Positions 23,809-35,675 of a DNA stretch of 37,003 nt are shown here, piece by piece; position 1 is the first letter of the stretch; each line of letters opens with the position of its first letter. Both the position numbers and the translations under genes were made by a program. The stretch is taken from positions 1 through 37,003 of the IMG/VR virus record IMGVR_UViG_3300050150_000008. One strand, 5' to 3'. The notes under the pieces are model-generated. The model searched no databases. It worked only from the letters and a program-made list of their open reading frames with translations, and was not told the origin of the DNA. Origin of the DNA: a virus (lineage: Duplodnaviria; Caudoviricetes).

Positions 23809-24360
23809 TTAGAAAGGGATTTCATCATTCAAGTCCTCGTCTTGCTCCTGAGTTTGAGTACCTTGAGCGGCTGCGGCTTGTGCAGCGGCAAAATAAGGAT
23901 CGCTTTCATCAAGAGCAGTAAAAGGCTTCGACTCGTAAGGGACGTGTTCAAGTACTCGAATAGCCCGAATATATACACCCTTCTTCATACCCTTACCGTA
24001 ATCTACAACGACAAACTTCAAATCAGCAACAGTGCCGTTGCCAAGTTCTTTCTCCTGATCCCAAGGCTTACCGAGAATATCAGTAACCTTAATGGTTTCA
24101 TTAGGAGAACCATCTTTCTTCAATTCGGCTTGCTTAAAAGACAGGAAAGGATTACCAGAGAGGTATTCGTCTTTAGTCTTTACACGGTCGGCAATACCGA
24201 CACTCTTCAAACCCTTTGCATCATCAGGCGTAATTTCCAGATCGACCTTCCATTCTCTCCCGTCTTTGTTGTAGTTCAAAGACAACTGATGTTCGAGAAC
24301 CTTAGCGAACGAAAGCTTACCACGGAGGGTAATCGTCTGGACGTCATTAGCCTTAGCCAT
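23809..24360 (-). CDS. ssDNA-binding protein, T7 gp2.5-like
   Basis: GKLSFAKV, ELGNGTVADL, RAIRVLEHVPY; acidic tail ending DEDLNDEIPF; adjacent to the polymerase. Confidence 0.8.
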   Translation of the reverse strand: MAKANDVQTITLRGKLSFAKVLEHQLSLNYNKDGREWKVDLEITPDDAKGLKSVGIADRVKTKDEYLSGNPFLSFKQAELKKDGSPNETIKVTDILGKPWDQEKELGNGTVADLKFVVVDYGKGMKKGVYIRAIRVLEHVPYESKPFTALDESDPYFAAAQAAAAQGTQTQEQDEDLNDEIPF

Positions 24361-24686: not shown

Positions 24687-26454
24687 CTTGTCTTAACTCC
24701 TCTACATGGTCTTTAAAAACATCACTCTGCCACTCGTCATGGATATCCCCTACTTTAAGGACATCAAGTTTACGTCTATAAATCAATGACGAACTATAGA
24801 TGGAAGCTTGTTTCATGATTCTTGATTCGTCTCCTTGTAGTAAGTAGCCAAGACGTGTGTGTGGAGAGGAGACGATAATGGGTGTCCCGTCACAAAGGAC
24901 AATTCTTCTAGTTCGCTCCACCTGTCTAGCAAGGTAATGGAGTAGATCTGCAAGACCCGGAAAATTAGAGATAAATCGCTTTTTAATTTCTCCACCGTCT
25001 CTTTTTGAGCCGCCAATGATTTGGCCGACTTTTTCGTCTCCTGCTCCCAATAGGAATGCGTAGATGAAAGTCTTAGCGACAGCTCTTGTTGTAAAGCCTC
25101 CAACTTCTTGGTTATAACTGTGTGGGTCGCCTCCGACGACTGCTTCTGTGAATTTGTCATTATTTAAATACTGCGCAAGGACGCGAAGCTGAATACCTTT
25201 AGCGTCAACTCCAACGAGAAGACGAGTCCTAGGATCGCGGCAACGCCATAGATCACGGCTTTCATAGGTGAATACCCCATCAGTTCCTTTAAGAGGGGAT
25301 TCGTCAGTCTTGCTAACGCGAACTGCTGGAATGTTAGCCGTGTTAGGATTAGAGTGGCGATAGCGGAGGGTATTAGCAAACCATAAACTGCCATGAATTG
25401 CGTGGGTGTGTTCATTGTATGATTCCATCCATGTATTTATCATGTTACCACGGGCGTTGTAGTCGATCCATTTTGCAATCAATCTAGCCCCTTGGTGATC
25501 TGATTTCTCTACGAAGGCTTCAAGAGAAGGAGATAGTTTACCTTTGATTACGGGCTGTGGCTGCCCTTTTGGATGTGACTTACTTGGCTTGGTGAATTCA
25601 AGAGGTTTCCATCCAAGTTCCAGTAGTCTTTCAACTCGCTGAGGTGGACTTCCAACGTTGAAACTAACGTAGGAATAGCAGTCATAGCTACCGTCGTCTC
25701 TCCGTCGAACATCATCATACTGTTCGAGATGTCGTTTAAAGTTTTGAGTGTCGCTTCCATCTTTCTTGCGACTTTGCTTCCCTGTAAAAACTCTTGTAAG
25801 TTGAGGAGGCCAATACTCATGGATTTCCCTTTCAAGTTCTTTCTCAATTTCACGAATCTTTGCATACAAGACGAGAGCTTCTTCGTAAGCAAAGTAAAAA
25901 CCGTTTCTTTTTTGGATTTGAATAAGAGCCCAAGACCTGTGTTCGAGTTCAATACCTCTTTCTGTAAAACCTACTTCGAGCATACGACGACGCAACTCTA
26001 GATAGACACGAAGACAGAGATGGCTGTCACGGAGACAGTAATCTTCTTGTCCTTGAGACCACTGAGAGAAATCAGACCAGTCACCTTTAGGATAGTTCAA
26101 ACGATTACCCCAAGCTTCAAGTGAGTGACCACCTGCAAGACTTGGAGAATAGATCATCGACATAATCATGGTGTCAATGATGTTAGCGACAGTAAGAGTA
26201 GTTGATAGGACTTTATTCAAGGTCGGCCCGTCGTATCCAAGACCGTTATGAAAGACAAGGTAATGGCCTTCTAAGACACGACTAGTAACCCAGGCTTTGA
26301 TGAGTTCTGGGTTACGTAGACGTATTTCTTGTTTAGTCTTGGCATTAACGGCAGTCAGACACCACACTTTCGTAACAGCAGGATATAAGTCGTTACCTTC
26401 GATGTCACATCCCCAAACGGTCGATAGATCAGCCGAAAGGTATTTGATCGTCAT
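24583..26454 (-). CDS. Family A DNA polymerase (T7 gp5-like) with 3'-5' exonuclease
   Basis: Exonuclease DIE, HN..YD, YC..D; motif A DAKGIQLR, motif B RAVAKTFIYAFLLG, motif C IHDE. Confidence 0.93.
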   Translation of the reverse strand: MTIKYLSADLSTVWGCDIEGNDLYPAVTKVWCLTAVNAKTKQEIRLRNPELIKAWVTSRVLEGHYLVFHNGLGYDGPTLNKVLSTTLTVANIIDTMIMSMIYSPSLAGGHSLEAWGNRLNYPKGDWSDFSQWSQGQEDYCLRDSHLCLRVYLELRRRMLEVGFTERGIELEHRSWALIQIQKRNGFYFAYEEALVLYAKIREIEKELEREIHEYWPPQLTRVFTGKQSRKKDGSDTQNFKRHLEQYDDVRRRDDGSYDCYSYVSFNVGSPPQRVERLLELGWKPLEFTKPSKSHPKGQPQPVIKGKLSPSLEAFVEKSDHQGARLIAKWIDYNARGNMINTWMESYNEHTHAIHGSLWFANTLRYRHSNPNTANIPAVRVSKTDESPLKGTDGVFTYESRDLWRCRDPRTRLLVGVDAKGIQLRVLAQYLNNDKFTEAVVGGDPHSYNQEVGGFTTRAVAKTFIYAFLLGAGDEKVGQIIGGSKRDGGEIKKRFISNFPGLADLLHYLARQVERTRRIVLCDGTPIIVSSPHTRLGYLLQGDESRIMKQASIYSSSLIYRRKLDVLKVGDIHDEWQSDVFKDHVEELRQDVYPIAFARAGNSFNYRVPIECDSKVGRTWAETH

Positions 26455-28093
26455 TTAATTGCCCTCCTGAAGTGAAGATGGCAGATTCTGCCTCGTCTAG
26501 TTCAGTAAGTCTTGCGGTATGTTTGTTGTAAAACAAATAACCGGCAGGGCCTGTAAAACCAGAGAAACGGTTCTTTTCGACAGAAACAGAAGTGATATTA
26601 CGACGCCACTCATTTGCTTCTGTCTTGTCACGTTGCAACCTAATAACGACATTGGCTAGTTGTTCAACACCGGCAGTACCACGAATCTGTCCTTGGCGAT
26701 TGGTGTGAATAATAGCAATGACAGAGATATCAAGCTCCATCGTCAATGTCTTTAATTTGGTGGCAATTTCGTCGAGTTGCTTTCGTTCGTCACCGGATTG
26801 ATCGGAAACAACGATGCTAAGGTGGTCAAGAACAATATACTTACAACCCAAGGCAACCATATGCCTGACTTTGTTAAGTACGGCATCAACAGTGTTACTA
26901 CCGAAATGGTCCCAAATGACAACCCGATTATTATTGAGAAGCTCGTCATATGCTCGACGAATATCCGTAGTAGGCCATTCGGCTTTAGGTAGAAGATGGT
27001 ACGGCTGAGAATTATGGACAGTAATAAGCCCGAGGGCGGTATCACCATTAGGCTCTTCAAGATGAAGGAATCCAACTCCGTAACCCTTTTCTTTGATCTC
27101 AGGATCGGTAAGAAGTTTGTGTTCGATGTGCTTGATGATGCTCGTCTTACCAACACCAGTGTCGGCGGTGACAATTACCATTTCAGACAGTCTCAAACCA
27201 AATGTCTTCTCATTCAATCCTGGAAAGGGATAGAGAGTAGAAAAACTCTCCTGTCTATTGATGATTTCATCCCACATTTCCGAGCCGAACTTGATCTCGT
27301 CTGGACGGAAGTTAGGGGCACCCCACCATTCTCGGACAAAGACGTCACTTTCTTTGTTCAAGAGATAGTCCGAGGCGTCTTTATATTTACGCATCGTGAG
27401 GATTTTAATCTTATTCAGAGGGAGTCCGCATCCTGCTGCTGCTCTAACAGCCTTGCGACCTGCTTCGTCGTTGTCGAAAGCAAAGACAATAGTATCGAAA
27501 GAGTTTAGGTACTCGAAGTCAGCAGATACATCGGCTTCAGCGGTGGAAGCAGAGTGGACAGAAACAGCAGGATATTTGCCGCCTGTCATTTGGTGGGCAG
27601 CCATGGCGTCGTCCTGTCCTTCTGTGACAGTAATAGCCTTGGCAGACCCTGGTTCAAAGGCGTGACGACCCCAGAGGCCTTTGTGTTGAAAAGAACCCTC
27701 GACAGAGAATTTCTTTTCTGGGTAACGAATCTTGTTACCGATGTGGTTGTTATTTGTGTCGTAGAGAGGGTATTTAGCCTCGTAGGGGGCGTTGCCAGAT
27801 CCGATGTCTACTTTGTATCGGCGGATCGTTTCCTCTGTCAGGAGGCGCTCCTTGAAAGGACGATAGACTTGTGTGATTGGGGAAAAGGGAGAAGACTTCT
27901 CTTTAGGTTCAGAAGTGACAGTAGTTGTAGTTGTAACTGTACCACTTTCAAAAGAACCGGGAGCCCACTTGGGCTTATCACAGCTCCCACTGTGACAGAA
28001 ACCTACACCAGAGGGTAGGACAGAGAATGCGTCAGACGACTTGCCACAAGGACAAGGTAAGTGAGTTTTACTCATCTTATTATTAGACCTCAT
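26429..28093 (-). CDS. Primase/helicase, T7 gp4-like
   Basis: Zn finger CPC..SSDA..CHSGSC, TOPRIM TEGQDDA / FDNDEAG, Walker A ADTGVGKT, LDHLS, KNRFSG; start 28093 or 28075. Confidence 0.93.
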   Translation of the reverse strand: MRSNNKMSKTHLPCPCGKSSDAFSVLPSGVGFCHSGSCDKPKWAPGSFESGTVTTTTTVTSEPKEKSSPFSPITQVYRPFKERLLTEETIRRYKVDIGSGNAPYEAKYPLYDTNNNHIGNKIRYPEKKFSVEGSFQHKGLWGRHAFEPGSAKAITVTEGQDDAMAAHQMTGGKYPAVSVHSASTAEADVSADFEYLNSFDTIVFAFDNDEAGRKAVRAAAGCGLPLNKIKILTMRKYKDASDYLLNKESDVFVREWWGAPNFRPDEIKFGSEMWDEIINRQESFSTLYPFPGLNEKTFGLRLSEMVIVTADTGVGKTSIIKHIEHKLLTDPEIKEKGYGVGFLHLEEPNGDTALGLITVHNSQPYHLLPKAEWPTTDIRRAYDELLNNNRVVIWDHFGSNTVDAVLNKVRHMVALGCKYIVLDHLSIVVSDQSGDERKQLDEIATKLKTLTMELDISVIAIIHTNRQGQIRGTAGVEQLANVVIRLQRDKTEANEWRRNITSVSVEKNRFSGFTGPAGYLFYNKHTARLTELDEAESAIFTSGGQLNDDQIPFG

Positions 28094-28451: not shown

Positions 28452-28480
28452 ATTATATCATTGTTCTATGGGAAAGTCAA
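28452..28480 (-). promoter_or_regulatory. Sigma70 promoter upstream of the Zn-finger gene
   Basis: TTGACT-17 nt-TATAAT with TG; -35 overlaps the ATP-grasp stop; very short leader. Confidence 0.75.
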
Positions 28481-29247
28481 GAGAAAAATTCGGCGTAATC
28501 CGTAACAGTCTGACCTTCAAGACCTGGAGCGGTGTTGACTTCGAGAACGAAAGAACGGCTTTGACGGGTGTTCCAGATGACATCGACTGCACCGAAGTCC
28601 AAACCAAGACAAGCAATAGTTGTCTTAGCAGCTTGGATACAGTGCATAGGGACTTCAATGCCTTGACGTTGAAAAACGAATCCGTTGTCGAGATTACGGA
28701 CACGCCAGTCAGTAGGTTCAACGTCTTGACGACGGACTTTTTGCTGGCGAGAAATCACGACTTCTTCGGTAATGTAACCATTCGTGCTTCTATGGTCGTC
28801 AAGACCAACAAACACCGAACGCTGGCCGACATGGATACGATATTCGGAAGCTTTCTTTACGTATTTGACGTAAAGAGGAGCAGGTACGAGATCGTCCCGA
28901 CGATCAGCAATGACAATGCCGTTGCCGCTATGTCCGTTGAGGACAGTTCGACAGACAATCGGAAACGCCTCGTCAGGAATGTCGGCTGGGCTAGTCCAGA
29001 AATCAGGGACGAGTCCTGTACTTTCCATTGCCTGAAAAAAAGTAAGCTTGTTCGTTGCTCGTTCGACAGCATTGTTGTAGATCCTCGGAAAGGTGAAACC
29101 GTGGTTGTTGTTACCCCAGTTGATAACCTTGTCGCCGTCTCGATACCGATAACGACTGCCTTCAAGCTTCAAGACACGACCACCAAGGGCTTGTGCCAAG
29201 GCAGCCGCTGAGCGACTACCCTGACGGTAAGGGATAATACGAATCAT
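28477..29247 (-). CDS. ATP-grasp ligase (RimK-like, phiEco32 cluster type)
   Basis: NKL, GHSGNGI, EYRIHV, LDFGAVD, LEVNTAPG. Confidence 0.9.
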   Translation of the reverse strand: MIRIIPYRQGSRSAAALAQALGGRVLKLEGSRYRYRDGDKVINWGNNNHGFTFPRIYNNAVERATNKLTFFQAMESTGLVPDFWTSPADIPDEAFPIVCRTVLNGHSGNGIVIADRRDDLVPAPLYVKYVKKASEYRIHVGQRSVFVGLDDHRSTNGYITEEVVISRQQKVRRQDVEPTDWRVRNLDNGFVFQRQGIEVPMHCIQAAKTTIACLGLDFGAVDVIWNTRQSRSFVLEVNTAPGLEGQTVTDYAEFFS

Positions 29248-30524
29248 CAGAAATCATCCACAACAGGAGGAGCAGGAGGAACGTCCCAAATTGCCAAAGG
29301 CTCTTCATCATTGAAGACGTCTAACCAACCAGGGGCAGGCTGAGTAGTAATTTCCTCAACAAGAGAAGCAGTGGCAGCGCCGTCAGTAAGACCACGCCGA
29401 CGATTTGGAACAGGGGCTTGCGGAGTGTCTCGCAGGACTTCATTAAACCACCGAGGACTATCTGTCCTAACAGAGAACCTTTGAGCCGTACGAACCATCT
29501 CCTCGCTAATGGGAGATGCCTGCAAACGAAGCCCTTCACGTGAAGAGCGAGGACTTCGCCGTCCTCCTTCATCAAAAGGGTTAGGAATATAAACCTTGTT
29601 AACCTCCTTCATCCAATCGTTCCAAGGAAAACCCTGACTCAAAGACTGGGAGCGACGAAACCCTTCGAGGACGCTACGCTCGAAATCTTTGTTTTCTTCA
29701 AGAGAAAGCACAGTGTCGAAAAATTCGACAGAGACCTCACCGAGTTGGCAAATCTCACCAAAGATTTCACGAGCAGGACGTTCCGAAAGATCGTTGGCAA
29801 TCAACGAAGGATTCGGAAAACGAGTCACGGCATAATCAACCAAAGCCTTGAGGAACTTCGCCCAATCAATAATCGGTTGATACGTCGTCGAACCTGCCAT
29901 GGTACGAAACTCGAGACTACCAAGAGTCGGAAGAGTCGCAACATTGAGAGCGGCGTATTTGAAGCGCCCCTCAGGAAAGTCATAACGACCACGGCTGAGA
30001 AGATTCTCCCAGCCACGAATGAGATTGTTCGAATCTTTGACCGAGAGACAGAAGTGATTCGTCTTGCGCTGGACACCACACCAGTTAATCAGAGCTTCCT
30101 CAAAAGCAGTCCAAAGACAGATGATTGAGGTAATCTCGTTGATTTTCTTGCCGCCCATGTTGATGTGGACGTGAGTCGAACAACGATTGCTGAGATTGAA
30201 CCGAGTCTGATGCCGAGTGAACTTTTCCCAAAGCCGACTGAGCATGAACTCAAGTTCTTCGGCATAAATAGGAGTCGTCACGACGAATTCGGCGCTCTCA
30301 CCACGAAGAGAACCGTCACGCTTCGGCGACCACATAGCCATGCTCTTCGGAGCCTGAATGTCAGCGAGATGACCAGCCGAAGGAAGATTGAGAGCTTCAA
30401 TCTCAAGTTCGAGACCGATGTCACCAAGACCGTTCACAGCAACAAGAGGGCTGTTAAGAGGAAGACCAGGAATCGCCTGGTCACTCGGTTCTTTTTTCTT
30501 GAGGTATTCGTCCAGAAAAGCCAT
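29247..30524 (-). CDS. Amidoligase (COOH-NH2 ligase, glutamine synthetase/GCS fold)
   Basis: GLELEIE, DGSL..AEFV, CSTHVHIN, KYAALN, SLEFR; start probably ATG 30524. Confidence 0.88.
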   Translation of the reverse strand: MAFLDEYLKKKEPSDQAIPGLPLNSPLVAVNGLGDIGLELEIEALNLPSAGHLADIQAPKSMAMWSPKRDGSLRGESAEFVVTTPIYAEELEFMLSRLWEKFTRHQTRFNLSNRCSTHVHINMGGKKINEITSIICLWTAFEEALINWCGVQRKTNHFCLSVKDSNNLIRGWENLLSRGRYDFPEGRFKYAALNVATLPTLGSLEFRTMAGSTTYQPIIDWAKFLKALVDYAVTRFPNPSLIANDLSERPAREIFGEICQLGEVSVEFFDTVLSLEENKDFERSVLEGFRRSQSLSQGFPWNDWMKEVNKVYIPNPFDEGGRRSPRSSREGLRLQASPISEEMVRTAQRFSVRTDSPRWFNEVLRDTPQAPVPNRRRGLTDGAATASLVEEITTQPAPGWLDVFNDEEPLAIWDVPPAPPVVDDF

Positions 30525-30525
30525 G

Positions 30526-31176
30526 TCAAAACTCCGAAATATTTTCAATAGGAAGAGTAGGCGCTTCGATCAACTCCTCCTTGAGAAAAGAAAAACGACT
30601 CATGAGGAGAATCGAAGAATTGTCAGTGAAAAGACCGACTTTCGAAGTGTCTTTGTAAAGCCAACGAATTCCGTTGTTGTCACGAAACACCGCGAGATTG
30701 TTCGAGATAGCAATGGTGTCGCCGATACGAATGTTTGTCAAGGTGTCTGCCAAAGAAGGAAAGACACCGTTGTTGGCATCGGAAAAACCAGGATCGGAAA
30801 CAAAACTCTCTAAACGAATGTCACGGGAAAAAGTCTCACCGCTTCTATCGACGGCTAAGACAGTGGTGTTTTCACCAGTGAAGCCATGACGAGTCGTACG
30901 AACGACACGACGCTCAAGGTAAAGGGCACGACCTTGGCTGATGTTGTTGCTCCATCCGAGACGAGGAAGATTCCGAAAATGATGGAAGAGAGGATCGGCG
31001 AGATTCAAACGAGTCGTGGCACCGACAGGAAAAATCCTGACGTCTGCAAAGATTTGCTCGTCACGACTCGGCAAGATACGCTCAACCAGAGCCGGTGAAG
31101 TCCCGTAAAGAACAACCGACCCTGTGAGACGCTCCGAAGCCTGCTGCGAATCTTCCCAAAAGGCGTCGTTACGCAT
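30526..31176 (-). CDS. Hypothetical protein within the ligase cluster
   Basis: Tightly packed between the two ligases; start MRNDAFW at 31176 (track gives 31206). Confidence 0.7.
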   Translation of the reverse strand: MRNDAFWEDSQQASERLTGSVVLYGTSPALVERILPSRDEQIFADVRIFPVGATTRLNLADPLFHHFRNLPRLGWSNNISQGRALYLERRVVRTTRHGFTGENTTVLAVDRSGETFSRDIRLESFVSDPGFSDANNGVFPSLADTLTNIRIGDTIAISNNLAVFRDNNGIRWLYKDTSKVGLFTDNSSILLMSRFSFLKEELIEAPTLPIENISEF

Positions 31177-32071
31177 CGGCTTTTTCCTTCTGTTCGTATT
31201 GGGCACGGATGTTACCTTCCTTGCGGACTTGAGTCATCCACTTCTGCGAACCCCAAGTGTTATCGGCAACATAAGTCATGGCAACCAATGCCCGTTGCCA
31301 ATCGCCGGTGTCGATGATTTCACGAATCTGATCTTGGGTCAGATTGAAAATACGCTCGACGGTCTTCTTCGAACGAAGACTGTTGACAGCAAGCTGACAG
31401 AGTTCGAAAATGGCACGACGACGACCGACATGACTGAGCCAGACATTCGACGGAGTCCGATATTCGACGCCGTAAGGCTTGGGACGGAAAGCACCAGCCT
31501 TGCCGTAGAGTTCACGACGACGACTCTCGGAATCAATGATCGTCATAAACAAACCGACATAGCCGTCGAGACGCTTCACGGCGTTGCGGCAGATTTCGAT
31601 GTGGTCGGGGTGATCGACAGGAATATCCGAACCCCAGCCGATGTGGATGTGACCTGCGGCGGTACGGAAGAGGACTTCGCCGTTGGGACGAGGATTGACT
31701 TCGCCGGTATAGGCGTTGTAATCAGGATCACAACCAAGATCCTTGGCAGCGATAGGTTGAGCCGCGAGATACTCTTCCGAAAATTCCTGGACAGGAATGA
31801 TGTTCAGAGTGTTCCGAGGATCAACATCCTTGACGGCTTTCCGAAGAGACGAAACGACGTCAGTGATGCGACTGTCGAAAGTCGAAAAGTTGTTGCCCAT
31901 CAAAGGAGTCGGATCGACGTTGAACTCGACAGCCATGCCATCGACTTGGTAGGCTCCGTTCGGGACAGGGAAAGGTTCAGCTTTCGTGCCCTTGATGAGG
32001 CCGTAAGCCGATACAGGCTTGCCGTCTTTGCGAACGAACAGTTCAGGGTCAGCACCAATGGTAAACGACAT
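31169..32071 (-). CDS. phiEco32-like COOH-NH2 ligase type 2
   Basis: IGADPELF, QVDGMAVEFN, GCDPDYNAY, RTAAGHIHIG, RRELYGKAGAFRPKPYGVEYRTPSN. Confidence 0.92.
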   Translation of the reverse strand: MSFTIGADPELFVRKDGKPVSAYGLIKGTKAEPFPVPNGAYQVDGMAVEFNVDPTPLMGNNFSTFDSRITDVVSSLRKAVKDVDPRNTLNIIPVQEFSEEYLAAQPIAAKDLGCDPDYNAYTGEVNPRPNGEVLFRTAAGHIHIGWGSDIPVDHPDHIEICRNAVKRLDGYVGLFMTIIDSESRRRELYGKAGAFRPKPYGVEYRTPSNVWLSHVGRRRAIFELCQLAVNSLRSKKTVERIFNLTQDQIREIIDTGDWQRALVAMTYVADNTWGSQKWMTQVRKEGNIRAQYEQKEKADA

Positions 32072-32081
32072 ATAGGTATCC

Positions 32082-33554
32082 TTAAGCAACGACCGAAGTG
32101 TCGGTCACACAAGATTGACACAGAAAGAAGGCTTTACCTTCCCAAGGTGTTTTGGCAGATTGGTCAAGAAAGATTTCAAAAACTTCCTTGAGATCTCCGA
32201 CAGGGTGTTTGCAAAATTGACAGACGCAATCCGTCAGTTCTTCAAAACGAGCCGAAGACATTTCATGTCCGGTTTTGTTGTCCGTGATGAAATCAATTCC
32301 GGCGACGGTTCGCAGCGAAGTCTTCGAAATCGAACTGCGCTGAGCGATTGAGTTTCGCTCCCTCTCTGTCCAGTTTCTTGAGGGCCTTCCTCTGAGCGCC
32401 GACGGAGAGTTGCTTGAATTCGGAGACACCAACGATAGCCTTGGACGCCCTGAACTTGTCGAATTCGTCAACGCCGTCTTGGAATCCGAACCAGTCGCAG
32501 AAGAGGGTGGTGATCCGATTGTAACCATGTTCGTATTCGTAGACTCGTCCGCTCTCGGCGTAAGCGCCTGCTGGCTTAGGAGTCGAGGGGACGGAAGCCA
32601 CATTCCCCCCTCGCCGAGGATGTAGTCCTCCATTCCGATATCGTCGAGCTGATCGTCTGGAAGTGAAAAAGGGTCGGCTACCTCTCCTCCTTGGTCGGGG
32701 ACATCAACCACAGTAACGTTGCCCATACCGTTGCGACTTCGAAACCCCCAGTCATTCCCAGTCAAGCCACGGTTGTTCATACCCGACGACACTACGTTTC
32801 CCGTGTAAGTTCGAACCTCCGAAGCAAGCTCAACAGGTTCAGCAAGGGTGAAGATCTCCGAAGGAGTCTTGCCCAACCAATTGATTTTGTAGGAGAAAAG
32901 ACGATTCTCGGGAAGCTTCCAGAACATCGGCTCACCTGTCTCGGGATCGCCTTGGAAGAGTTTGTACTTGTCACGACTGAATGCGTTGATCATCCAAGGC
33001 TCGGAAGCCCAGATCATGACTTTCTTGTCTTCGGTATAACCGAACCAGAGAGGACGCTCGGCGTTGCGAAGAAAGTTCAAAGTCTTCTCGTTCGAGTCAT
33101 ACCAAACAAGAGCCCAAGCGCCTTGCATCTGAGGGATCGTCTCACGAACGCCCTCTTTGCTGATCTTCGAAAAAAGAAAATCAGAGTCGACCTCGAAAGT
33201 CGAAGCCCCTGACATGTTGTAATGACCACGGAGAGTTCCGTTGTGGACACCAAGGATGTGGTCATGTTCAAAAGGGTGGGCGTTCCGACCAGTGACGGCA
33301 CCGAAAGTCTTGGCACGGCAATGGCCGACCATGATCTTGGCGTTGGTGACGTCGACGATCTTGTCATAAGACTTCGTATCGAGAAGCTGTTCAGGCGTCC
33401 CGACAGTCTTGACGAAGCCGGTCACGCCGGTATTGTTGACCGAAAAAGCCCCCGTCGAGTCACGACCACGGACTTGACAGACCCGCAGAAGGTCTTTGAA
33501 TGCGTCGCGATGACCTGCGTTGATGTCACCAGCGATACCTACGATGCCACACAT
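32082..33554 (-). CDS. Class II (Ntn) glutamine amidotransferase with long linker and C-terminal Zn finger
   Basis: MCGIVG at 33554 (TAATG coupling), RGRDSTG, GHCR..T, NAHPF, HNGT, VDS; ends in CQFC..CQSC. Confidence 0.9.
   Translation of the reverse strand: MCGIVGIAGDINAGHRDAFKDLLRVCQVRGRDSTGAFSVNNTGVTGFVKTVGTPEQLLDTKSYDKIVDVTNAKIMVGHCRAKTFGAVTGRNAHPFEHDHILGVHNGTLRGHYNMSGASTFEVDSDFLFSKISKEGVRETIPQMQGAWALVWYDSNEKTLNFLRNAERPLWFGYTEDKKVMIWASEPWMINAFSRDKYKLFQGDPETGEPMFWKLPENRLFSYKINWLGKTPSEIFTLAEPVELASEVRTYTGNVVSSGMNNRGLTGNDWGFRSRNGMGNVTVVDVPDQGGEVADPFSLPDDQLDDIGMEDYILGEGGMWLPSPRLLSQQALTPRADESTNTNMVTIGSPPSSATGSDSKTALTNSTSSGRPRLSLVSPNSSNSPSALRGRPSRNWTERERNSIAQRSSISKTSLRTVAGIDFITDNKTGHEMSSARFEELTDCVCQFCKHPVGDLKEVFEIFLDQSAKTPWEGKAFFLCQSCVTDTSVVA
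32293..32601 (-). CDS. Putative overlapping gene in the -1 frame of the amidotransferase linker (102 aa)
   Basis: GTG start preceded by GAGGGGGG; C-ending codons match neighbouring genes, whereas the main frame here is S/T/R-rich and uses CTA/TCA. Confidence 0.55.
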   Translation of the reverse strand: MASVPSTPKPAGAYAESGRVYEYEHGYNRITTLFCDWFGFQDGVDEFDKFRASKAIVGVSEFKQLSVGAQRKALKKLDREGAKLNRSAQFDFEDFAANRRRN

Positions 33555-34369
33555 TATGCTTCGACTCCCATGTTCAAGGCCGTGGCTGCAATAGCAGTGG
33601 CTTCCTTTTGACGAGCTTCCGAAGGAGCTTCGTCTTTCCAATTGTCAAGAAATTCCTTGAGGCGAGTCATCGTCCAATGACGGAAGACGTCGTCACCGAC
33701 TTCGGGATGCCCTTGAACAAAGAAACAACCAGTCTCGTCGTAAGAGCCTGCCTCGATTTCGAGTTCAGACACCGCCGCCGAATTGGTGCCAGCCGATACG
33801 TGGACAGTGCCACAGGCGTCTTTGAAAGACGTCGCGACTTGCTCACGAGTGATGGCGATGACGTTGATCTTGTCGTTGATCTGCAACATCTGGTGGTGAA
33901 TCGAAGTCGAACGAAGGATGTTACCCCACTCGACGTCGATGATGTCATGACTCGTGCCGTGGTTGTTGACGTCTTGCCAGAGCTTGCCGCCATTCATGGC
34001 ATGAAGGAACTGAGCGCCGCGACAGATGCCGAACATCGGCTTGCGATTCTTGACACACTGGCCGAAATGCCATTGTTCCGAAATGTCACGTTCGTTGTAG
34101 AAATGACTGGCGACATTCTTGTCACCATAGAGGGCAGGATTGATATCCGAACCTCCGGTGAAGACAACGACGTCTGCCTTTTCGACAGTGGTGGCGCGTT
34201 CAAAACCGAACTCAGCCATCAAAGAAACGACATTGCCGAAGAAAGCACCAGGAAGGACATAAGCCTTCAGACCCTTGAAGGAAGGTTTTTCCTTCTGAAG
34301 AGTCCAAGGCGTGAAACCCGAGAGGTCGATACGACCCTGAGTCTCAATGAGCTGCTTTGTCAAAGACAT
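33554..34369 (-). CDS. Class I glutamine amidotransferase / peptidase C26 (gamma-glutamyl hydrolase-like)
   Basis: FTGGSDI.P.LY, GICRGAQ, SIHHQM, QGHPE. Confidence 0.9.
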   Translation of the reverse strand: MSLTKQLIETQGRIDLSGFTPWTLQKEKPSFKGLKAYVLPGAFFGNVVSLMAEFGFERATTVEKADVVVFTGGSDINPALYGDKNVASHFYNERDISEQWHFGQCVKNRKPMFGICRGAQFLHAMNGGKLWQDVNNHGTSHDIIDVEWGNILRSTSIHHQMLQINDKINVIAITREQVATSFKDACGTVHVSAGTNSAAVSELEIEAGSYDETGCFFVQGHPEVGDDVFRHWTMTRLKEFLDNWKDEAPSEARQKEATAIAATALNMGVEA

Positions 34370-35318
34370 CAAGAAGTCCTTTCTTTTTCATGAAGGGAAT
34401 GACGACATTCCGAAGCTCGGAAAGAGTCACGACGTAAGGCATTTCCGACGACGGCGTGTTGAAACTCGAAGAAAAAGGATCGACAATCCTCTTCTCTTTG
34501 GTAGGCTTGCGGAAAGCCGAAAGCTCTTTGGCAAATTCCTTGTCCTTGAGAAGGCTTTGCGTGAAATACTGTCCGCTGGAGTAGGTATCACCTTTGGCTT
34601 GACAATACTTCAGACCCCCATAGATGGTTGCTTTGTGACGATAATGAGTCGTCTCGTCGTCCTTCAAAGAAGAACCGTAATCGCCGACAGCGAAATTCTT
34701 CATCGTTTCAAGGCTCGGCCAAAGAGGAAAAGCCGTGTGCGTCCACAAAGAACGGACTTTGAAATCACCTTCCGATTGAGACGGAAGGAAATTCCGAATG
34801 TTCGAATTGAAAGCGATGCCATAAGCGAAATCTTCAGGGTAACCTTCGGAAACAAGGTCATTGAAGAGTTCGAAAGGCTTTGCAATGCACTCGTAGAAAT
34901 GTCGACTCACGAGAAGAACATTCTGGAAGAGAGCCGACGGAACATCCGAACAGACGACAATGCCATGACGGAAGGCAAATTCGGGATCGTCTTTGTTCAG
35001 AATGAAGCGGGAAGCAAAAGACCGATTGAGGAAGTACTCGAAGAAAGGCCGCATGAGGTTGACAGACACCTTATCCCAATTACGAGTCGACCCGATTTCA
35101 GTTGCGATACAGGCCCGAGTTCCATCCAAATTAGTAAAATTCTGCATTCGACCGTGGCAAGGAGCGCCAAGATTGGCGTGGACAGTTCCTTTGTCGGTGA
35201 TGACAAAGAAGTTGGTGTTTCCCGTAAAATGTTTTTCTTGGTCGACCAGAGCCTTGAGACCGGCTTTGATGGCGACTTCAGGAGTCTTAGGGGAAAACGA
35301 AAGATCAGCAAGGTTCAT
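34344..35318 (-). CDS. Hypothetical protein (324 aa) at the head of the ligase cluster
   Basis: TAAGGA RBS, same codon bias, overlaps the GATase I start. Confidence 0.75.
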   Translation of the reverse strand: MNLADLSFSPKTPEVAIKAGLKALVDQEKHFTGNTNFFVITDKGTVHANLGAPCHGRMQNFTNLDGTRACIATEIGSTRNWDKVSVNLMRPFFEYFLNRSFASRFILNKDDPEFAFRHGIVVCSDVPSALFQNVLLVSRHFYECIAKPFELFNDLVSEGYPEDFAYGIAFNSNIRNFLPSQSEGDFKVRSLWTHTAFPLWPSLETMKNFAVGDYGSSLKDDETTHYRHKATIYGGLKYCQAKGDTYSSGQYFTQSLLKDKEFAKELSAFRKPTKEKRIVDPFSSSFNTPSSEMPYVVTLSELRNVVIPFMKKKGLLDVFDKAAH

Positions 35319-35327
35319 GGTCTTTCC

Positions 35328-35675
35328 TTATTTGCTGCGATACGACCGATACGAAGAGTAGGAAGGCCGATACGAAGACCGATAGGATGGCATCGAAGGA
35401 CGGTAGTTGTACGACTTCTGAGGGACGTACGAAGGTTTGTAGGGCGGTCGATAGTTGTGCTGCACAATCGTGGTGTGCGTCTGATTGACGACAGGAGAAG
35501 GGCGATTGCCGAGCATACGACCAGCAAGAAAGCCCACACCCGCTCCGATCAAACCGTCGGAAAAACCCGACCCTTGAGCAACCGGCTGGCCGGTATTGGG
35601 ATCGGTGATCGGGGCCGAGCAAGCCGTGAGCAAAGTCAACGAAAGCAGAGAAAGAAAAGCCATGATCTTCTTCAT
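35328..35675 (-). CDS. Lipoprotein with glycine-zipper segment and S/Y/R/P-rich tail
   Basis: GGAGG RBS; MKK..LLTA-C lipobox; GLIGAGVGFLAG; tail PSYRSSYRPSYSSYRSYRSK. Confidence 0.8.
   Translation of the reverse strand: MKKIMAFLSLLSLTLLTACSAPITDPNTGQPVAQGSGFSDGLIGAGVGFLAGRMLGNRPSPVVNQTHTTIVQHNYRPPYKPSYVPQKSYNYRPSMPSYRSSYRPSYSSYRSYRSK

Follow-up and report, generated by a model that had tools for sequence, protein, structure and literature searches.

The class II glutamine amidotransferase gene of the podophage described here very probably yields two proteins: judging from its sequence features, -1 ribosomal frameshifting stimulated by an internal Shine-Dalgarno (SD)-like element most likely gives a form with a basic helical tail beside the main-frame form that ends in a putative zinc finger. 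The gene lies on a 37-kb contig (the window, that is, the entire 37,003-nt stretch of IMG/VR record IMGVR_UViG_3300050150_000008 that was analysed; all coordinates refer to it), with the capsid and tail genes on the plus strand and the replication genes on the minus strand. The contig occurs in leaf-litter metagenome runs, with no RNA run among the 22 runs carrying it. The gene is part of a cassette with the order class I amidotransferase, class II amidotransferase, COOH.NH2 ligase, conserved unknown, amidoligase and ATP-grasp enzyme (Table 1), and this adjacency identifies the gene set as the phage amidoligase cassette of the PA11/phiEco32 type. The same genes, including a class II amidotransferase, form the cassettes of phiEco32, PA11, LUZ24 and RIO-1, and in these and other phages the cassette has been hypothesised to be a peptidoglycan-modification unit (according to passages of PMC5498523). 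As to a possible relation to Zobellviridae, the best matches from cultured phages for this one gene alone are those from PA11-like phages and CVT22, with 37-38% identity over half of the protein. A 115-aa ORF upstream of the cassette (35328-35675, minus strand) shows a lipoprotein-like signal, a weak glycine-zipper match and a tail of Ser/Tyr/Arg/Pro repeats.

Table 1. Features of the amidotransferase gene and its neighbourhood in the window
Feature	Position	Strand	Remarks
Class I amidotransferase / peptidase C26 (upstream neighbour)	33554..34372	-	its stop codon overlaps the class II start
Class II (Ntn) glutamine amidotransferase gene	33554-32082	-	main-frame product of 490 aa (about 54 kDa), predicted to consist of a catalytic domain, a disordered linker and a zinc-finger domain
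Ntn amidotransferase domain, ~residues 1-245	32820..33554	-	common to both predicted products; N-terminal Cys, GHxRxKT, HPF and HNGTL motifs
Upstream -1 frame stop codon	32704..32706	-	10 codons before the heptamer
Internal SD-like element AAGGAGGAG	32684..32692	-	predicted to stimulate the shift; its GGAGG core ends 12 nt upstream of the heptamer
Slippery heptamer C_CCU_UUU	32667..32673	-	encodes Pro-Phe whether read in the 0 or the -1 frame; predicted site of the -1 shift
-1 frame from heptamer to TGA, 126 codons	32293..32673	-	predicted 420-aa (about 47 kDa) trans-frame product; net tail charge +10
G_GGG_GGA and GTG of the earlier note	32599..32610	-	present here, not conserved
Conserved core of the -1 tail (SGR..Y...GF.DG.E...LPS...F..LS..QQRK.LRR)	32299..32559	-	predicted folded; predicted helices at tail residues 42-62, 64-77, 83-87 and 91-125
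Main-frame C-terminal domain	32100..32327	-	two CxxC motifs (32222-32211, 32120-32109); predicted folded
phiEco32-like COOH.NH2 ligase (downstream neighbour)	31169..32089	-	
Remaining cassette	28477..31206	-	conserved unknown (phrog_11055), amidoligase, ATP-grasp (RimK-like) enzyme
Clade genes with an earlier heptamer			L004, L008-L010, L013, L016-L019, L021, L085, L087, L088, L104, L109, L115

The N-terminal part of the protein matches Pfam GATase_6 (E 1.6e-13), and its AlphaFold2 model has a pLDDT above 85 in every ten-residue block up to residue 240. Foldseek retrieves the GlmS glutaminase domain (E 1e-13; 1xff, TM 0.71 by target), and the fold matches include GlmS, PurF and EgtC. With an MCG start, the HNGTL motif and a modelled Ntn fold, this is a class II (Ntn) glutamine amidotransferase domain with putative glutaminase or gamma-glutamyl hydrolase activity. 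The C-terminal domain contains a CxxC..CxxC pattern that is present in 117/119 homologues and that suggests zinc binding. The Atlas search with this part gave no match, a scan aimed at the C-terminal part found zero loci, and no cultured phage matched either the zinc-finger part or the -1 core of a relative. Between the two domains, approximately residues 248-407 of the main frame are mostly modelled with pLDDT <50 and are predicted to be disordered. A G..V..PF motif is kept in 110/119 homologous proteins, and the 40 closest homologues (38-46% identity) all contain the same S/T-rich stretch between an invariant Pro-Phe and the CxxC domain, which pointed to a common hidden frame.

We collected 172 loci that, with the window, made 173, of which 172 gave an amidotransferase ORF; 157 ORFs with an intact 3' end and a length of 340 aa or more were kept, and 126 remained after dropping copies with >90% identity. 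In 36 of these 126 genes, the -1 frame is open for 86-144 codons after an in-frame C|CCT|TTY located at residue 249-312, compared with none of the 90 outgroup genes; the 80-codon cut for the -1 tail was chosen after the data had been seen, and no outgroup gene has such a tail of more than 47 codons. The 36 genes occupy one side of a single branch (SH-aLRT 88; 99 for the inner 33 rows), with no featureless row inside, in a quick IQ-TREE tree built from the catalytic domain only, with no bootstrap; they come from related genomes, so the clade counts given here are not independent. The codon preceding the Pro ends in C and the Pro codon is CCT in 36/36 clade genes. In contrast, at the equally invariant His-Pro-Phe of the catalytic domain, which we used as a control site, the heptamer is present in 5/35 clade and 7/87 outgroup genes, and at other Pro-Phe pairs in 6/50 cases. 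The heptamer is thus conserved beyond the needs of the protein. H_HH.U_UU.Y heptamers are among the most efficient motifs in E. coli, according to a part of PMC4066793.

No stop interrupts the -1 frame in 36/36 clade genes, whereas the +1 frame contains stops in the overlap in 33/36. When the main frame was shuffled synonymously, the -1 frame was fully open in 0/1000 shuffles of the window gene and in at most 3/1000 for any of the 36 clade genes. Long -1 stretches lacking the heptamer are found elsewhere in a few genes (for example, 197 codons in L048). In the clade genes, the main frame likewise continues without a stop into the CxxC domain, and both products hence appear to be kept.

The second conserved signal is an SD-like element. 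Upstream of the heptamer, 30/36 clade genes have a GG[AG]GG core, which ends at a distance of 12 nt in 25 of them and of 15 nt in the other 5, compared with 0/35 at the control site; the remaining 6/36 have no SD core at 9-16 nt. SDs that stimulate -1 shifts sit 9-14 nt upstream, as stated in a part of PMC5009743, and the five 15-nt cores fall just beyond this range as measured here. The glycine codons at the site are GGA or GGG in 56/70 cases, against 183/680 across the domain, and the mean anti-SD pairing energy is -10.5 kcal/mol, against -7.9 +/- 0.3 in synonymous shuffles, 0/200 of which were as low. We rejected a conserved 3' hairpin as a further element: under nested folding only, the 70-nt downstream folds have a mean z of +0.2 relative to other gene windows, with 7/36 below -1. 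The frameshift efficiency could therefore be low; 3' structures are not always found at prokaryotic frameshift sites, according to a published passage.

The heptamer, the SD-like element 12 nt upstream and the open, selected -1 frame together imply that some ribosomes likely slip back one base. A ribosome translating the main frame would be engaged by pairing between the 16S rRNA tail and the SD-like element, and tandem slippage at C_CCU_UUU would move tRNA-Pro from CCU to CCC and tRNA-Phe from UUY to UUU, presumably with no need for a conserved 3' hairpin. A fraction of the ribosomes would thereby make the 420-aa form, in which the predicted four-helix tail replaces the zinc finger, and the rest would complete the 490-aa form.

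In the core over which the 36 tails align (approximately 70 residues), one Gln is invariant and one Gly nearly so. AlphaFold2 predicts four helices for the -1 tail of this phage (mean pLDDT 84, with blocks 41-110 at 95-97). The tail is basic, with a median net charge of +8.5 in the clade and +10 in this phage, and in 35/36 genes the -1 domain ends before the zinc finger. Conservation favours the -1 frame: across the 66 core columns, the mean BLOSUM62 score is 1.20 in the -1 frame vs 0.33 in the main frame, and identity in the overlap is 29% vs 22%. In nine disjoint pairs of genes, the changed codons divide into 139 synonymous and 228 non-synonymous in the -1 frame, compared with 78 and 299 in the main frame, and the differences peak at -1 position 3 (256, vs 192 and 119 at the other two). 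These substitution patterns indicate that, where the two frames overlap, it is the -1 frame that is under purifying selection. Among strains, five differences fall inside the -1 ORF, three of which change the -1 protein, all in the variable N-terminal linker; the sole difference in the folded core leaves the -1 protein unchanged and causes T363M in the main frame.

Searches for homologs of the tail yielded little. The 102-aa product alone gave no matches. There was no consistent Pfam or PHROG match over the 36 members, no match of the tail model in PDB or BFVD at E <=0.001, and no match of the core profile to solved structures by sequence; the best structural match (Z 7.0) is to generic helical bundles, which does not show a new fold. 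Because an annotated gene conceals the whole domain, the tail is missing from protein databases. Among 1.84 billion representatives, a profile search produced nine hits, three of which are true members of the tail family; we discarded the other six, of which P0124 and P0126-P0129 resemble unrelated proteins with 'kYG..eG' repeats and P0130 presumably does as well. Two of the true members, P0122 and P0123, are fragments of the tail produced by gene callers and entered as free proteins. The third, P0125 (395 aa, from a 46-kb contig; E 4e-6), carries the tail in frame with the catalytic domain; this one protein record may represent a fixed fusion or an assembly indel error. In P0125, the change of frame apparently lies upstream of the Pro-Phe. 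No longer fused proteins were found with the core profile in a word-index search, which is a weak method, or among the 119 main-frame homologues.

The overprinted frame had been pointed out in an earlier note on this DNA, and the observations on which that note drew hold up. It described a main frame rich in Ser, Thr and Arg, and these make up 42% of residues 316-421 vs 18% of residues 1-295; the CTA and TCA codons that it considered avoided elsewhere number 2 and 5, respectively, in the 106 codons of the former stretch vs 0 and 1 in the 295 codons of the latter, although with 5.1 and 4.3 per 1000 in the training genes (see below) they are rare, not absent. The C-ending bias of the -1 frame is borne out by a C at the third position in 46/102 codons; a 102-aa ORF with a GTG start is indeed present in the -1 frame of the 490-aa gene, at 32601-32293; of the antisense ORFs, 32410-32625 follows the register of the -1 frame, and 32691-33212 and 33222-33611 that of the main frame; and the main frame is open as far as the two CxxC motifs. 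Scored for codon usage with 12 other minus-strand genes as the training set, the main frame falls below zero and the -1 frame rises above it from approximately 32610 to 32330. The start needs correction: the -1 frame is open upstream as far as the stop at 32706-32704, beyond the coordinates of the note, and the conserved entry is at 32673. The G_GGG_GGA (32610-32604) that the note took for a slip site is present, but only in this phage among the 36 clade genes; other XXXYYYZ heptamers up to 45 codons downstream occur in 6/36 genes, each different in kind and place. We rejected this heptamer and the GTG start as private to this phage. Of the two outcomes that the note envisaged, an overprinted eighth gene of the cluster with its own GTG start is not supported, and two amidotransferase forms with alternative C-termini produced by a -1 frameshift are supported, with the conserved slip site C_CCU_UUY lying 63 nt further upstream.

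A separate overprinted gene with its own start (GTG 32601 here, unusual codons in the relatives) that would use the SD-like element for initiation is, in our assessment, improbable. A G-rich stretch does precede the in-frame GTG in this phage, gene callers have placed two such free proteins in databases (P0122 and P0123), and some GTG or TTG is in range in 9/36 genes. However, in 27/36 genes the stretch between the upstream -1 stop and the 45th codon after the slip site contains no ATG, GTG or TTG, and the starts present in the other genes are scattered; the conserved SD sits 12 nt before CCC-UUU rather than before a start codon; a -1 stop lies directly before the heptamer in 5/36 clade genes; and a separate gene leaves the invariant heptamer unexplained. 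Some added initiation at the GTG of this phage may nevertheless take place. Even less credible, and practically refuted by the relatives, is an assembly artefact with two compensating indels in this contig. The six-G run at the apparent start would be a natural place for such an error, but the contigs of eight further runs, possibly from one campaign, show substitutions only and no indels, five single records (one flagged as a possible source of this DNA) span both the overlap and the slip site, and the G..V..PF motif and the S/T-rich stretch recur in the homologues, as given above.

Transcriptional slippage, in which RNA polymerase would add one base in the C3-T4/5 run so that normal translation makes the fusion, predicts the same product and the same selection on the -1 frame as ribosomal frameshifting, and we still consider it very improbable. 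Productive transcriptional slippage usually requires longer runs, whereas those at the clade sites are short (three C and three to five T, with CCCTTTC at 11/36 sites); moreover, this explanation accounts neither for the SD at a fixed 12-nt spacing nor for the switch to A_AAA_AAG, G_GGA_AAG and C_CCA_AAG in relatives (see below). The -1 frame might also be a relic, an ancestral in-frame domain displaced by old compensating indels and untranslated now. The protein P0125, which has the domain in frame with the enzyme, and the resemblance of the main frame in the overlap to an off-frame reading would fit such a history, but a relic is extremely improbable given that the -1 frame is still under apparent purifying selection between close relatives, that none of the 36 diverged genes has a -1 stop, whereas most have +1 stops, and that the only strain difference in the folded core (T363M) spares the -1 protein at the expense of the main frame. 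Programmed ribosomal frameshifting hence is the reading that we adopt.

Such frameshifting would work like that in E. coli dnaX and IS911: there as here, an X_XXY_YYZ heptamer in the 0 frame lies at a domain linker, an internal SD is at a -1-stimulating spacing, and the two products have a common N-terminal catalytic part. The heptamer is A_AAA_AAG in those genes and C_CCU_UUY here, and both dnaX and IS911 have a 3' stem-loop, whereas none is conserved here, so we do not file this gene as a full dnaX-type cassette. In dnaX, the shift leads to an immediate stop and thus to gamma; here, in contrast, it would add a predicted folded domain of approximately 85-145 aa that is encoded inside the main frame, and the gene is for a phage metabolic enzyme. 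The phage tail assembly chaperone G/GT and T7 gene 10A/10B are structural and assembly genes in which the shifted frame mainly extends past the 0-frame stop; unlike in these genes, the whole trans-frame domain is here overprinted on the linker. They likewise produce two proteins from one gene via a slippery site (a part of PMC5009743), and phage 9g uses CCCUUUUUUU, reported as a -2 shift (a part of PMC4276943). West Nile virus NS1' depends on the same heptamer, C_CCU_UUU, and an internal overlapping trans-frame ORF (a passage of PMC11797035), but with a eukaryotic ribosome and a 3' structure as the stimulator, and no homology is implied.

Our literature search, at the level of titles and the opening of abstracts, found no report of recoding in this gene, although a related gene might be listed in the supplementary cluster tables of PMC4066793 and PMC3711429, and the word 'amidotransferase' is absent from the first 300,000 of the 449,034 characters of PMC5009743 and from the main text of PMC3711429. 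As far as we found, the class of mechanism has been described before (dnaX, IS911), but not its occurrence in this gene, the joint presence of such a heptamer and an SD with no hairpin, or the domain overprinted in the main frame. Most phage frameshifts described so far concern structural and tail-assembly genes, whereas the present gene, for which the support is strong, encodes a phage metabolic enzyme; it would also provide a natural bacterial -1 site made from an SD and C_CCU_UUY with no conserved hairpin.

Slip sites of other kinds appear in the amidotransferase genes outside the clade. In the 90 outgroup genes, 33/103 Lys-Lys pairs in the linker are encoded by A|AAA|AAG, vs 2/72 in the catalytic domain and 3/60 further on; this heptamer is found in the linker of 31/90 genes (shuffle mean 6.9, maximum 16, 200 shuffles), and one of four efficient heptamers in that of 50/90 (shuffle mean 12.3, maximum 24), with none in 40/90. 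The outgroup -1 tails are short, and many are basic and amphipathic-looking. Among the cultured phages, G_GGA_AAG occurs in the linker of PA11 (L173, residue 266) and FBPa8 (L180, residue 267), A_AAA_AAG in that of GP100 (L175, residue 278) and IME271, and C_CCA_AAG in LUZ24 (L185, 1301-2833, residue 397) and EPa87 (L181, residue 405), where the tails end in DEIPF and DIPF, respectively, which we take to resemble the C-terminal tip of SSB. Most of these sites lack a strong SD, and no linker heptamer was found in CVT22, StenR_269 and Slicky01 among the 16 cultured phages. In phage TL (L184, 1301-2402), a deletion of approximately 430 nt has fused the catalytic domain, in frame, with the -1 tail of LUZ24, and the gene stops there; a random deletion would give such an in-frame join one time in three. 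None of the 16 cultured-phage records annotates a frameshift in the amidotransferase gene (that of phage TL is entered as two misc features), and none has a long -1 domain.

A second efficient heptamer, upstream of the conserved one, is present at residue 242-255 in 16/36 clade genes (Table 1; shuffle mean 4.8, maximum 11, 300 shuffles); a search of the window gene for such a site found none. It is mostly A_AAU_UUU or A_AAA_AAG, mostly with a short aromatic tail, and would yield a short third form of the enzyme with such a tail. In L021, the earlier heptamer opens into the same long -1 frame.

Why one catalytic head would need several tails is a matter for speculation. We tentatively suggest that the two tails are alternative docking modules for the same glutamine/gamma-glutamyl-cleaving head, because the enzyme has no synthase domain of its own; each tail would seat the head on a different partner, either one of the three cassette ligases or a polyanion (membrane or nucleic acid). 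It is likewise conceivable, although we would not favour it at present, that the amidotransferase is a family-wide recoding hub across the PA11-like phages, the LUZ24-like phages and those of this clade, in which one or two -1 slips in the linker would swap the zinc finger for other docking tails, namely, the basic four-helix domain, short aromatic or amphipathic peptides, or the SSB-like acidic DEIPF tip. If so, fixed proportions of the one catalytic head would go to different partner ligases or cell sites, and this would offer a handle on the product of the cassette. In any case, the amidotransferase of this cassette, which is found in many lytic podophages, probably exists in several forms, and reconstitution of the cassette must allow for them; the related slip sites in the cultured phages PA11, FBPa8, GP100 and LUZ24 make the general claim testable at the bench.

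Some further sequence features were noticed in these proteins. In most clade genes, the main frame after the heptamer encodes an acidic LDD..(I/L)P motif (32666-32620 in the window; DDIPF in L164 and DDDLPF in L108), and in L111 the heptamer coincides with a DDELPF motif. The ssDNA-binding protein and the primase-helicase of the window (23809-24360 and 26429-28093) end in DEIPF and DQIPFG, respectively. In L192 and L193, which are distant LUZ24-like genes, the -1 tails that open at residue 252 end in LSKKQRRKLRR, resembling the last helix of the clade tails (LS..QQRK.LRR); this likeness may be due to convergence from the -1 reading of S/Q-rich main frames.
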